In this document: piece by piece, positions 8,753 through 14,328 of the stretch
Position numbering within the stretch: position 1 is the first letter of the stretch
Layout: the number at the start of each line of letters is the position of its first letter
Assembly (NCBI GenBank): GCA_963825505.1
Contig: CAWGTL010000018.1
Span: forward strand, 66,137 to 130,136
Reading direction: 5' to 3'
Origin: an uncultured Actinomycetota bacterium
GTDB taxonomy: Bacteria; Actinomycetota; Actinomycetes; Actinomycetales; CAWJMD01
Length of the DNA stretch: 64,000 bases
The notes under the pieces: generated by a model
The model's database searches: none
What the model saw: the letters and a program-made list of their open reading frames with translations, nothing else
Told to the model about the DNA's origin: nothing
Program-made: the position numbers and the translations under genes

Positions 8753-11700
8753 GTGGACGACGACGTGACGAAGCCGATCTCCCGTGTGGCCGTGGTCAAC
8801 CGTGGTGAGGCGGCGATGCGCCTCATCAACGCGGTGCGCGAGATCAACGCGGGCCGCGCGGCGGGGGAGCCGCAGGTCGTCACGATCGCCCTGCACACCG
8901 AGGGCGAGCGCACGGCGCGGTTCGTCCGCGAGGCCGACGAGGCGTTCGACCTCGGGCCCGCGTCGGCCCGTCCGTACCTGGACCTGGAGCTGCTCGAGCG
9001 GGCCCTCGCCGAGACCCGCGCCGACGCCGCGTGGGTCGGCTGGGGCTTCGTCGCGGAGGACCCGGCGTTCGCCGAGCTGTGCGACCGGATCGGGGTCACC
9101 TTCGTCGGCCCGAGCGCGGACGCGATGCGCCAGCTCGGCGACAAGATCGGCGCCAAGCTGCTCGCCGAGGAGGTCGGCGTCCCGGTGGCGCCGTGGTCGC
9201 GCGGTCCCGTCGACGACCTCGCGTCGGCCACCGAGCACGCGGCCCGGATCGGCTACCCGCTCATGCTCAAGGCCACCGCCGGCGGCGGCGGGCGCGGCAT
9301 CCGCGTGGTCACCACCGACGGCGAGCTGGCCGACGCGTACGAGCGCACCCGCGAGGAGGCCGAGCGCGCGTTCGGCAGCGGCGTGGTCTTCCTCGAGCGG
9401 CTCGTCACCGGCGCGCGGCACGTCGAGGTGCAGGTCATCTCCGACGGCGAGACCGCCTGGGCGCTCGGCGTCCGCGACTGCTCGGTGCAGCGCCGCAACC
9501 AGAAGGTGATCGAGGAGAGCGCGTCGCCGGTCCTGAAGCCCGCCGACGTCGCGCGGCTGAAGGAGTCGGCCGAGCGGCTCGCCGTCAAGGTCGCGCTACC
9601 GCGGGCGCCGCCACGGTCGAGTTCCTCTACCACCCGGGCGACGGGACGCTGGCGTTCCTCGAGGTCAACACCCGGCTGCAGGTGGAGCACCCGATCACCG
9701 AGCTCACCACCGGCGTCGACCTGGTCAAGGCGCAGCTGCACGTGGCGTCGGGCGGCAAGCTGGAGGGATCGCCGCCGCCCGAGCTCGGGCACGCCGTCGA
9801 GGCGCGGCTCAACGCCGAGGACCCCGACCGCGACTTCGCCCCCGCGCCCGGTCGCGTCGAGCTGCTGCGGCTGCCGGCCGGCCCCGGCATCCGGGTCGAC
9901 ACCGGGCTGGGGGAGGGCGACACGATCCCCGCCGACTTCGACTCGATGATCGCCAAGATCATCGCCTACGGCCGCGACCGCGACGAGGCGCTGGCCCGGC
10001 TGCGGCGCGCGCTGGCCGACACCCACGTCGTCATCGAGGGCGGCGCCACGAACAAGAGCTTCCTGCTCGACCTGCTCGACCAGCCCGAGGTGGTCGACGG
10101 CTCCGCCGACACCGGGTGGATCGACCGCGTCCGCACCACGGGCCGCCTGGTCGCGCACGAGCACGCCGGCGATCGCGCTCGTGGTGGCCGGCATCGAGGC
10201 GTACGAGCAGGAGGAGCAGGTCGAGCGCCAGCACTTCTTCGCCACCGCGCACGGCGGCCGCCCGCAGGCAAGGCACCAGCCCGGACGACCGGTCGACCTC
10301 GCCCTGCGCGGCCAGAACCAGCGCGTGACGGTCGCGCAGGTCTCGCCCGAGCGGTACCGCGTGTCGCTGCGGCCGGACGGCTCCGACGCCGTCGACGTCG
10401 AGGTCGAGCGCCTCGGCGGGTACGCGCTGCGCGTCACCTGCGCGGGCGACCACCCACCGGGTCGTCACCGCCACGCACGGCACCGTCCACTCGGTCGAGG
10501 TCGACGGCGTCACGCACCGCGTCACCCGGGACGAGGGCGGCGTGGTCCGCTCTCCCGCACCGGCTCTCGTCGTCGCCGTGCCGGTCGCGGTCGGCGACGA
10601 GGTGGAGGCCGGCGCCCGCGTGCTGGTGCTCGAGTCGATGAAGATGGAGACGGTGCTGTCCGCGCCGAGCCGGTCGCGGGTGCGCGAGCTGCACGTCACG
10701 CACCGGTCGCCAGGTCGAGACCGGCGCGCCGCTGCTGCGGCTCGAGCCGATCGGTGACGACGACGGCGCGGCGGTCGCCGCCGACCCGGGCACCGCCGTC
10801 GAGCTGCCCGTGGCCGGCGACCCCGACCCCGCCGACCGGCGCACGCCGCTCGCTGCGCGACCTGCAGGGCATGCTGCTCGGCTTCGACCTGCCGCCGGGC
10901 GACGCCACGCCGCGCCGTCGCGGGGCTGCGCGACGGCACCGGCGACCGCCAGGCCGGCACGGTCCTGGTCGCCGAGCTCGCCGTGCTGCGCGGCGTTCGC
11001 CGACGTCGCCGAGCTGACCCGCAACCGTCCCGAGCACGAGGACGACGGCGCCGACGAGCGCGTGCACAGCCCGCGCGAGCACTTCCACTCCTACCTGCAG
11101 AGCCTCGACGTCGACCGCCAGCAGCTGCCGCCGGTGTTCCAGGACAAGCTGTCCCGTGCGCTGTCGCACTACGGCGTCACCGACCTCGAGCGCACGCCCG
11201 TCCTCGAGGAGGCGGTGTACCGGCTGTTCCTGGCCCACCAGCAGCAGGCCTCGCACGTCGCCGGTCGTCAGCGCGGTGCTGCAGGAGTGGCTGCGCACAC
11301 CCGCCCCGCAGGGGCCGCTCGCCGACGAGGCGCCACGACGTGCTCGACCGGCTCGTCGTGGCCACCCAGCTGCGGCACCCGGTGGTCGGCGACCTGGCGC
11401 GCAGCGCCCGGTTCCGCTGGTTCGACCAGCCCGCCGTCGACGACGCCCGCGCCCGGGTGATGGCCGAAGGTCGGTCCGAGCTGGAGGCGCTGGCGGCGAT
11501 CCGACGACCAGCCCGACCGGCCGCGCGGATCGACGCGCTGGTCGCCATCCCCGAGCGGATCGTCGGGTTCCTCGCCGAGCGGCTGGAGCAGGGCAACCCG
11601 CGCCGCGAGCCGATGCTCGAGGTGCTGGCCCGCCGCCACTACCGCGAGCACGAGCTCGGCAGGATGCGGCAGTCCGACGAGCGCACGGCATGCCCGAGGG

Positions 11701-14328
11701 CCGTCCGTCGTCGTCGCCGACTACGTGCTCGACGGCCGGCCGACGCTGCTCGTCTCCACCGTCGGCGAGATGTCCGAGCTCGCCGACGGCGGCCTCGACC
11801 GCGCGATCGGCGCGGCCAGCTCGAGACCGTCCCGCCGAGCACCGAGTCGGTGGTCGACCTCTACCTGCACTGGCCCGGCGCCCCGGACGTCGGCCGACGC
11901 CGTCTCTGCGGGCATCGCAGCGGCGTTGTCGCAGAACGCTCTCCCGCGCGTCCGCCGCGTCGTCGTCGGGTGGCGCCGTCGGTGGCGGGCGCCCGGGACG
12001 GCCGTGACGTCCGACTCGACGTTCCGGCCCGAGGACGACGACCCGACCCGCGGCGTCGTGGAGGACGCCCTCGTCCGGGGCGTGCACCCGATGGTCGCGC
12101 GGCGGCTCGACCTGTGGCGGCTGCGGAACTTCGAGGTCACCCGCCTCGACGCGCCCGAGGACGTGCTGCTCTACCACTGCGTCGCGCCGGGCAACCCCGG
12201 CGACCAGCGGCTCGTCGGCGCTGGCCCAGGTGCGCGAGCTCGCCGTCGTGCGCGACGCCGACGGCACGCGTCGCCTCGCTGCCGCACGTCGAGCGCGCGA
12301 TCGGCGACTGCCTGGAGGCGATCCGCCGGGCGCGGGCGCGATGGGGTCGGCCGGCGCGAAGATCGACATGAACCACGTCTGGCTGCACGTCTGGCCGTGA
12401 TCGACGCGCCGCTGGAGCAGCTGACCGCCCTCAAGGGCACGATCTCGCCGCTGACGGCCGGGCGCGGGCATCGAGGAGGTCGCGGCGCAGGGCCGCGTGC
12501 TGGCGCCGGACGGCTCGGTGCACCCGATCTGCCGCGCGCTTCACCTACCGGCCCGGGCCGGGGGTGGTCGCCGACGTCGGCGGCCCGCCCACCGAGCGCG
12601 CTGGAGCCGCTGGACGACTACGCGCAGAAGGTGATGCGCTCCCGGCCGGCGCGGCACCGTCTACCCGTACGAGCTGGTCGACCGTGCTCGCCGGCGAGGG
12701 CGGCACCTTCGTCGAGCACGACCTCGACGACACCGGCCGGCTGGTGCCGGTCGAGCGCCCGCGCGGGCTCAACAAGGCCGGCATCGTCGCCGGCGTCGCG
12801 TCCTCGCCCGACCGAGCGGCACCCCGAGGGCATCACCCGCGTCGTGCTGCTCGGCGACCCGACCAAGGCGCTCGGCGCGGTCTCGGAGGCGGAGTGCGCC
12901 CGGGTCTGCGCCGCGCTCGACCTGGCCGAGCAGATGGGCGTCCCGGTGGAGTGGTTCGCGCTGTCGGCCGGCGCCCGGATCTCGATGGACTCCGGCACCG
13001 AGAACATGGACTGGGTGGCCCGCGCGCTGCGCCGGATCATCACGTTCACGCAGGGCGGCGGCGAGATCAACGTCGTGGTCGCGGGCATCAACGTCGGCGC
13101 CCAGCCGTACTGGAACGCCGAGGCGACGATGCTCATGCACACCAAGGGCATCCTGGTCATGACGCCGGACAGCGCGATGGTGCTCACCGGCAAGCAGTCG
13201 CTGGACTTCTCCGGCGGCGTCTCGGCCGAGGACAACTTCGGCATCGGCGGCTACGACCGGGTGATGGGGCCGAACGGCCAGGCGCAGTACTGGGCGCCGG
13301 ACATCGGGGCGGCCTGCGACGTGCTGGTCGCGCCACTACGACCACACCTACCGCGTGCCCGGGCGAGGACGCCGCGCGCCGGGCCGCGACGTCCGACCCG
13401 GTCGACCGCGACGTGAGCGACGTACCCGCACGAGGTGGACGGGCAGCGACTTCACCACCGTCGGCGACATCTTCTCGTCGACGACGCAACCCGGACCGCA
13501 AGAAGCCGTTCGACATCCGCACGCTGATGCGCGCGGTCGCCGACGCCGACCACCCGGTGCTGGAGCGCTGGGCCGGCATGGCCGACGCCGAGACCTCCGT
13601 GGTGCAGGACGCGCACCTCGGCGGCCGGCCGGTGTGCCTGATCGGCATCGAGTCCCGACCCGTCCCGCGGCGCGGCTTCCCGCCCAGCGACGGCCCCGAC
13701 ACCTGGACGGCCGGCACGCTGTTCCCGCGGTCGTCGAAGAAGACCGCGCGGGCGATCAACGCCGCCAGCGGCAACCGCCCGCTCGTGGTGCTGGCGAACC
13801 TGTCCGGCTTCGACGGCTCACCGGACTCGATGCGCAACCTGCAGCTCGAGTACGGCGCCGAGATCGGCCGCGCCGTCGTCAACTTCGACGGCCCGATCGT
13901 GTTCTGCGTCGTCTCCCGCTACCACGGTGGCGCGTTCGTGGTGTTCTCCAAGACGCTCAACGACAACATGACCGTGCTGGCGGTCGACGGCTCGTACGCC
14001 TCGGTGCTCGGCGGCGCGCCGGCCGCCGCGGTCGTGTTCTCCGGCGAGGTCGACGACCGCACCTCCGCCGACCCGCGGGTCGCGCGCGCTGGAGGAGCAG
14101 ATCCAGGCCGCCGGCAGCGACCGGGCGGCGCTGGTGGCCGAGCTCGGCGAGCTGCGCCAGGCCGTGCGCACCGAGAAGCTCGGCGAGGTGGCGTCGGAGT
14201 TCGACCGCGTCCACAGCATCCGCCGCGCCGTCGAGGTGGGTTCGGTGGACGCCGTCATCCAGGCGCACGAGCTGCGTCCGCGCCTGGTCGAGGCCGTCGA
14301 GAAGGGGCTGCAGGCCGCGCGGAGCTGA
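8753..14328 (+). pseudogene. Single-chain multidomain acyl-CoA carboxylase (biotin carboxylase - BCCP - carboxyltransferase; LCC-like), interrupted by about 27 frame changes
   Basis: The BC domain spans 8753 to about 10170 (ISRVAVVNRGEAAMR, ATAGGGGRGIRVV). The biotinylation motif ESMKMET has its Lys codon at 10641-10643. The CT domains include ...GINVGAQPYWNAEATMLMHTKG... and ...NLSGFDGSPDSMRNLQLEYGAEIGRAV.... The C-terminus is ...EKGLQAARS* (ORF 14134..14328). Recognisable sequence hops among all three plus-strand frames. Confidence 0.8.

Follow-up and report, generated by a model that had tools for sequence, protein, structure and literature searches.

We analysed a 64,000-nt stretch of a contig from an uncultured Actinomycetota bacterium, hereafter the window, whose coordinates are used throughout. 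It carries a multidomain acyl-CoA carboxylase gene, assigned to the SACE_4237 type, which can be followed only by changing reading frame some thirty times. The gene lies at 8753..14328 on the forward strand, with a GTG start and a TGA stop, and its conceptual product after frame correction is about 1,876 aa long. The frame changes are very probably single-base insertion errors of the assembled consensus, and the gene would be intact and selectively maintained in the organism. A preliminary description of this DNA had preferred a local, insertion-biased error over decay. That preference is strongly supported by the constraint on the corrected protein, by the indels relative to a sibling contig, L081, and by a burst of extra bases that L081 has of its own.

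Frame changes in the carboxylase gene

The base composition of the window is about 75% G+C throughout, and the coding frame can be followed from the G+C content at third codon positions (GC3). In a GC3 frame plot of 8.4–15.3 kb the high-GC3 frame jumps repeatedly among the three forward frames. This plot and a seven-state period-3 hidden Markov model (HMM), run on the whole window, both show the carboxylase coding frame switching repeatedly within 9.6–14.1 kb, and GC3 is 0.95–1.0 inside each frame segment. The HMM blocks are mostly gene-sized (0.4–2.3 kb), but between 7.16 and 15.24 kb they are only 28–990 nt long.

Homologous loci, 80 in number, were fetched from other actinobacterial genomes with a 175 aa in-frame piece of the carboxyltransferase as bait. 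At 72 of them the stop-to-stop open reading frame (ORF) exceeds 1,800 aa, and several of the shorter ORFs are cut by a contig end. Seven intact homologues were taken as references for a custom-written, frameshift-aware protein-to-DNA alignment by dynamic programming, the check that the preliminary description had asked for. The alignment places 30 frameshifts against each of six references and 31 against the seventh; most references give 25 shifts that skip 1 nt and five that skip 2 nt. Between about 8770 and 14320 the window aligns colinearly over some 1,820–1,850 residues, and the conserved sequence can be traced across every shift. As a control, the same program finds no frameshift in five intact homologues. 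The description of a colinear carboxylase readable only by frame switching is thus borne out by the alignment, the GC3 plot and the HMM. Its segments had been described as free of in-frame stops, and none was found in the frame-corrected reading.

Could the shifts be biological? Programmed ribosomal frameshifting or transcriptional slippage at about 30 sites would account for a conserved sequence that can be followed across every one of them. The sites, however, share no motif and are neither slippery nor homopolymeric; neither the 99%-related sibling nor any other homologue examined has them, and unrelated genes on either strand carry shifts as well. We give recoding practically no credence.

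Four of the 80 loci (L014, L018, L030 and L077) have a broken acetyl-CoA carboxylase (ACC) ORF of 1,107–1,679 aa from stop to stop, though the contig continues. Three of the four are 'MFD' metagenome-assembled genomes of uncultured Actinomycetota with Flye-style contig names, and the long, high-GC ACC gene may often be fragmented in MFD-like assemblies. The 120 best database matches to the 175 aa carboxyltransferase segment are all proteins of 160–305 aa, mostly from ENA metagenome assemblies, and isolate genomes hold intact products of this family of more than 1,800 aa. The cause may be that many of the public gene calls for this family are fragmentary, or else a bias of the search towards short subjects.

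Identity of the carboxylase

The frame-corrected gene is colinear with intact ORFs of 1,810–1,960 aa in more than 70 actinobacterial genomes, and an end-to-end alignment of its product with the orthologue of Saccharopolyspora spinosa shows 62% identity over 1,882 positions. Pfam places biotin carboxylase (BC), biotin carboxyl carrier protein (BCCP), central and carboxyltransferase (CT) domains in that order on the single chain, all encoded on the forward strand. The biotin carboxylase, at 8777..10125, is made up of Biotin_carb_N (residues 9–125, E 1e-28), CPSase_L_D2 (residues 130–338, E 4e-56) and Biotin_carb_C (residues 350–458, E 7e-34). The biotinyl (BCCP) domain matches Biotin_lipoyl at residues 600–666 (10545..10743, E 6.5e-11) and contains the biotinylation motif ESMKMET, with its MKM, at 10632–10652. 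ACC_central (PF08326), the central region of eukaryotic ACC, is matched at residues 1098–1236 (12019..12429) with 23.9 bits against a cut-off of 23.2, and is also recorded on the homologous products of L081 and of a further relative, L082. The carboxyltransferase domain matches Carboxyl_trans at residues 1374–1869 (12829..14304, E 1.8e-35).

The two halves of the protein find different relatives. The N-terminal half matches many biotin carboxylases. For the central and CT half the 20 best matches in the Protein Data Bank (PDB) are all eukaryotic ACCs, fungal and human, with E values of 4e-23 to 1e-13, and chains of the PccB/AccD type reach E 2e-7 or worse. Like the eukaryotic ACCs of yeast (5CSK/1OD2), Chaetomium (5I6G–5I6I) and human (ACC1, 6G2D), the protein has a central region within the same domain order. 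Unlike these enzymes, which are 260–280 kDa [PMC6491548], it is shorter, and similarity to them is low outside BC and part of CT.

As its domains indicate, and as the structure-database matches indicate for the kinship of its CT, the gene is an ordinary actinobacterial multidomain ACC of the eukaryote-like SACE_4237 type. SACE_4237 is a homodimer of about 200 kDa with the order BC-BCCP-central-CT; it is active on acetyl- and propionyl-CoA and inactive on palmitoyl-CoA, and in Saccharopolyspora erythraea it is essential for fatty-acid synthesis [Livieri et al. 2019, Sci Rep 9:6725, PMC6491548]. Members are widely distributed, in Micromonosporaceae, Nocardioidaceae, Pseudonocardiaceae, Nocardiopsaceae, Streptosporangiaceae and others [PMC6491548], the taxa from which the homologous loci of this analysis also came. 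The window protein agrees with it in being a single chain of about 200 kDa, in domain order and in the affinity of its CT to eukaryotic ACC. Nothing architectural sets the two apart, only the roughly 30 frame-breaking indels in the window assembly. By homology to SACE_4237 the carboxylase would make malonyl-CoA for fatty-acid synthesis.

The gene had previously been described as a eukaryote-like single-chain BC-BCCP-CT carboxylase of the LCC (long-chain acyl-CoA carboxylase) type. The first part agrees with the Pfam domains and their order; the LCC label is wrong, because the size of the chain, the central region, the domain order and the CT matches fit the SACE_4237 type instead. LCC, reportedly 120 kDa in size, resembles the window protein in being a biotin-dependent carboxylase with BC, BCCP and CT on a single polypeptide. 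The LCCs of Mycobacterium and Pseudomonas are smaller, form homohexamers, lack the central region and arose by an independent fusion; their CT is N-terminal and their BC-BCCP C-terminal, and the CT falls in a separate clade, group III [PMC6491548]. LCC-type SACE_3154 is likewise the 'smaller' multidomain carboxylase, the central region being confined to eukaryotic-type ACCs [PMC6491548]. Membership of LCC is therefore rejected for a chain of about 1,876 aa that matches ACC_central, begins with BC and ends with a CT nearest to that of eukaryotic ACC.

Indels relative to the sibling contig

None of the 80 homologous loci is a close relative of the window (nucleotide identity is 78% or less), and close relatives were reached only through a neighbouring gene. 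The substrate-binding protein encoded at 5793–7106 is 100% identical to a public protein on the sibling contig L081 (ENA ERZ25039530 contig_6635). It is the only one so matched; exact look-ups of the proteins encoded at 18681–20132, 55721–57178 and 8018–8497 did not lead to the window's own contig. The nearest named relatives of this flanking protein are from Jiangella, Haloactinopolyspora and Phytoactinopolyspora (62–72% identity), and metagenomic contigs reach 82–100%. The DNA thus seems to come from an uncultured actinobacterium to which no sequenced isolate is close. The next relative, the Logan contig L082, shares the gene order of this region with the window (on L082 it is SGNH, GNAT, ACC, PP2C, DUF4396) and has an intact carboxylase ORF of 1,869 aa, with 86% aa identity to the corrected window protein.

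Sibling L081 matches window positions 1–8571 with 99.0% identity and 8682–16657 with 93% identity, gaps counted. None of the window's frameshifts is present in it: against the 30 of the window, its carboxylase has one, near window position 10815, and no stops. In the base-level comparison every frameshift placed in the window by the protein-to-DNA alignments coincides with an indel relative to L081. Over the carboxylase these indels comprise 27 isolated single extra bases, two 2-base insertions and three compensated stretches; the only clean 1-base deletions are those at 12339 and 12397, and there is a net −11 nt block at 11661–11707.

From the 5' end of the gene, and all on the forward strand, two single extra G at 9595 and 9603 together make a +2 shift, which the alignment places at 9599. 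Single extra bases follow at 10168 (G), 10447 (C), 10701 (C), 10845 (G), 10909 (G), 10992 (G), 11261 (C) and 11332 (G), each giving a shift that skips 1 nt. The L081 comparison then finds two compensated pairs, +C at 11464 with −G at 11478, and +A at 11499 with −T at 11521, the second of which is also found by the protein-to-DNA alignment. In a poorly conserved linker at 11661..11707 four small deletions, net −11 nt, leave a net frame change, seen as an alignment frameshift at 11670–11700. The L081 comparison and the alignments agree on an extra GG at 11814–11815 and an extra C at 11888. Eight small indels relative to L081 at 11940..12029, net −6 nt, put a local stretch out of frame, and a compensated pair of shifts at about 11962 and 12000 is seen against the majority of the distant homologues. 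The remaining events are again common to both comparisons: extra bases at 12216 (C), 12268 (G), 12465 (C), 12531 (G), 12600 (G), 12646 (C), 12685 (T) and 12810 (G), missing bases at 12339 and 12397, and extra bases at 13333 (C), 13358 (C), 13419 (G), 13440 (C), 13487 (C) and 14081 (C).

For each of the 27 frame changes that had been called by eye, the comparison with L081 has an indel no more than 10 nt away. As a total, 27 was a slight undercount of about 30, with 13440 missed along with three compensated pairs (11464/11478, 11499/11521 and about 11962–12000). Most shifts had been described as +1, and the bias towards insertion is real; even two of the five shifts that skip 2 nt represent extra bases (9595 with 9603, and the GG at 11814).

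Over 7000–14400, 34 of the 37 bases inserted relative to L081 are G or C (p ~0.009), and 22 of the 37 lie outside homopolymers. Three accounts of the insertions were considered and set aside. Homopolymer slippage, in the style of 454, Ion Torrent or Nanopore, is rejected on those 22 bases that are in no run and on run lengths that match the background. An origin in nearby single-nucleotide polymorphisms (SNPs) between strains is rejected, as insertions lie a median of 12 nt from the closest mismatch and random positions 13 nt. A CpG or other motif context, which might have hinted at methylation, is not significant (76% against a background of 67% among G/C); only the preference for G/C holds.

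Constraint on the corrected protein

Has the gene decayed, or has a functional gene been misread? The corrected protein was aligned with 72 full-length homologues. In these 72, 434 columns are invariant, and the corrected protein departs from none of them; intact homologues tested likewise break a median of 1 and a maximum of 8. With the threshold for a column lowered to 97%, one of 581 is broken, where the intact homologues have a median of 4.

Codon changes were assigned to branches with L082, the closest intact relative, as outgroup and L081 as sister. The window branch carries 64 synonymous and 33 nonsynonymous changes and the L081 branch 44 and 9, respectively. About half of the 33 lie 4 nt or less from a frameshift or inside the out-of-frame stretch at about 11983–12028, and most of the remainder are conservative (V/I, V/A, E/D, S/A, T/A). 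There are 53 codons at which the window has the state of the outgroup and the sibling does not, so that the substitutions reflect genuine divergence, shaped by purifying selection, and not noise. The coding sequence shows no relaxed constraint. No excess of nonsynonymous changes, change at an invariant residue, stop or bias towards deletion, each of which might mark a pseudogene, was found in the carboxylase.

These observations bear on the suggestion that the carboxylase and its neighbours have been inactivated in this strain and that some 30 indels have since accumulated in a real pseudogene. The indels are present in the deposited sequence, and the region differs by 2–5% from the sibling strain and so represents a distinct allele, as that account would have it. 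Thirty neutral indels would, however, be expected together with well over a hundred unconstrained substitutions, and bacterial pseudogenes usually show a deletion bias. The expected unconstrained substitutions are not seen: no invariant residue is changed, and the substitutions are mainly synonymous or conservative. The 27 single extra bases stand against two clean deletions, in-frame stops are lacking and GC3 is undisturbed. The same lesions are found in genes that are expected to be needed, those for ScpA, RluB and prephenate dehydrogenase (see below), and L081 has an independent burst elsewhere. The orthologue, moreover, is essential in S. erythraea [PMC6491548]. We consider a real pseudogene very unlikely.

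A related account would accept the extra bases as real and very recent. In this case a localised, insertion-only burst, for example from error-prone repair synthesis over a tract of about 7 kb, would have inactivated the multidomain ACC and its neighbours before substitutions could accrue, and the strain would live on another carboxylase or on external fatty acids. We regard such a burst as extremely improbable.

Frameshifts elsewhere in the window

The preliminary description had taken the other genes to be free of frameshifts. This is true of the genes it named (recQ, the RR-TrxR and kinase pair, DUF885, der and gnd), and not of the window. Frameshifts are not confined to the carboxylase: a dense zone from about 7.35 to 14.7 kb spans three genes on both strands, and about seven events lie elsewhere. 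About 41 events break the frame, and 34 of them are concentrated in 11.5% of the window (binomial p ~1e-25), a density of 4.6 per kb in the dense zone against 0.12 per kb in the rest of the window, or some 40-fold.

Within the dense zone, upstream of the carboxylase, an SGNH/GDSL hydrolase gene on the reverse strand (7207..7926) has an extra G at 7358 and an extra C at 7441 and passes through HMM frames R0, R1 and R2. The stitched product has a single unbroken Lipase_GDSL_2 match, covering profile positions 1–177 of 178, and L081 has an intact gene of 238 aa. The GNAT acetyltransferase gene at 8018..8497 on the forward strand, also inside the zone, is intact, with 159 aa as in L081 and an Acetyltransf_1 match of E 1.5e-17. 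Downstream of the carboxylase, a lipoprotein-like gene on the forward strand (14385..15252), with the lipobox LALGGC, has probable frame changes at about 14465 and 14666, as indicated by HMM frames F2, F1 and F0 and by the translations. Its DUF4241 match is weak (E 0.012, below the cut-off).

Outside the dense zone an ABC sugar permease gene on the forward strand has an extra C at 4275 and an extra G at 4295, 20 nt apart, with an HMM change from F0 to F2 at 4276; in L081 it is intact (323 aa). A second, sparser cluster, also on the forward strand, extends over 50653..53401. It consists of an extra G at 50653 in the gene for ScpA, an extra C at 52229 in that for RluB and, in the prephenate dehydrogenase gene, a net +1 at 53298–53313 and an extra C at 53401. 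These three genes are all broken within 2.8 kb, and in each a single Pfam match is continuous across the junction. On the relatives L085/L086 they are intact, in the same gene order, scpA-scpB-rluB-aroH-tyrA-cmk-der. At about 27550 a GmrSD_C (DUF1524) nuclease gene probably continues, through a +1 shift, into an Excalibur-like peptide at the C-terminus; the match to Excalibur (E 0.004) falls short of the cut-off.

HMM blips at 43301–43355 and 63010–63284 were checked as possible frameshifts and judged to be normal gene junctions or composition noise. Rfam and tRNA scans gave nothing relevant to the carboxylase region. ARAGORN reports a 91-nt tRNA-Arg(gcg) at 42963–43053 on the forward strand, opposite a DUF1206-like coding region and absent from Rfam at the gathering threshold, and this is likely to be a false call. 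Both ARAGORN and Rfam report the tRNA-Pro(ggg) at 57252–57326.

A burst of extra bases in the sibling contig

Directly downstream of the carboxylase it is L081 that is disturbed. Positions 18900–20015 of L081, equivalent to window 14330–15360, contain about 60 small events with extra bases in L081, 47 of them single bases. This cluster of 1 kb is denser than that of the window, which is comparatively clean there. It scrambles the lipoprotein-like gene, and no gene is called there in L081; the window has the two probable frame changes described above. Two sequences that are 99% related thus have independent, non-overlapping bursts of extra bases, which suggests that the clusters are specific to each assembly and are noise of assembly rather than biology. 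The indels of the window are absent from L081, and the same type of error affects unrelated genes irrespective of strand or function.

In the gap between the GNAT and carboxylase genes (8574–8682), L081 is some 370 nt longer (its positions 12780–13258), completing a small ORF (SGRPLDTVESVRAEV...) that is truncated in the window. At this length difference identity to L081 falls further, from about 97–98% to 93% counting gaps. The junction could be a recombination or assembly-chimera breakpoint.

Origin of the extra bases

The errors would be isolated extra bases, mostly G or C, concentrated in a stretch of about 7.4 kb (some 7.35–14.7 kb), and the same type of error would recur at about 1/40 of that density over the rest of the contig. 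We infer a long-read, probably metagenomic, assembly with a poor consensus in the dense stretch; the type of error, and the way in which contigs of the sibling assembly are named, agree with long-read metagenome assembly. Divergence from L081 climbs from about 0.3% to 2–5% at about 7 kb, where the dense zone starts. A likely cause would be low effective coverage where the assembled strain diverges by 2–5% from a co-occurring, better-covered strain. The flanks might have been polished with reads shared with the more abundant strain, leaving the divergent stretch reliant on few reads.

False pseudogenes driven by indels are documented in long-read assemblies and are worse at low coverage or where alleles are collapsed [PMC8445201, PMC8103633, PMC12007338]. 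As in those cases, isolated 1-nt indels split a long ORF in the window while the encoded protein stays conserved. Unlike them, the errors of the window are extremely clustered, almost purely G/C insertions, and mostly outside homopolymers.

Rather than simple low coverage, the artefact might reflect a consensus that mixes two co-occurring strains, through collapsed haplotypes or a chimeric contig. The rise in divergence at the start of the dense zone and the length difference at 8574–8682 would fit such mixing, and collapsed alleles are a known source of indel errors [PMC8445201]. The insertions, however, are no closer to strain SNPs than random positions are, and the divergence goes on past 14.7 kb without window frameshifts. 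Strain mixing is therefore a possible form of the artefact that we entertain with some doubt.

Several points weigh against consensus error as we have described it. The errors are deduced and not directly seen in reads. Their profile is unlike the common pattern of homopolymer deletions, being insertion-only and largely outside homopolymers, with no excess of substitutions. Divergence from L081 stays at 3–5% over 15.5–16.6 kb, yet the window is without a frameshift there, and the insertions lie no nearer to SNPs than expected by chance. The errors are tied to strain divergence in part only. Single-base insertion errors in the consensus nevertheless remain the explanation that we consider very probable for the frame changes of the carboxylase.

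Conclusions

The biological significance of the frame changes is small, as the gene belongs, like any other orthologue, to a characterised family and the changes are technical. They do call for caution: automated annotation would call a probably essential gene of 5.6 kb a pseudogene or a set of fragments, and would thereby understate the metabolic capacity of the genome. For the family, the label should be corrected. Proteins of about 200 kDa with the order BC-BCCP-central-CT in Actinobacteria are ACCs of the SACE_4237 type, not LCCs.

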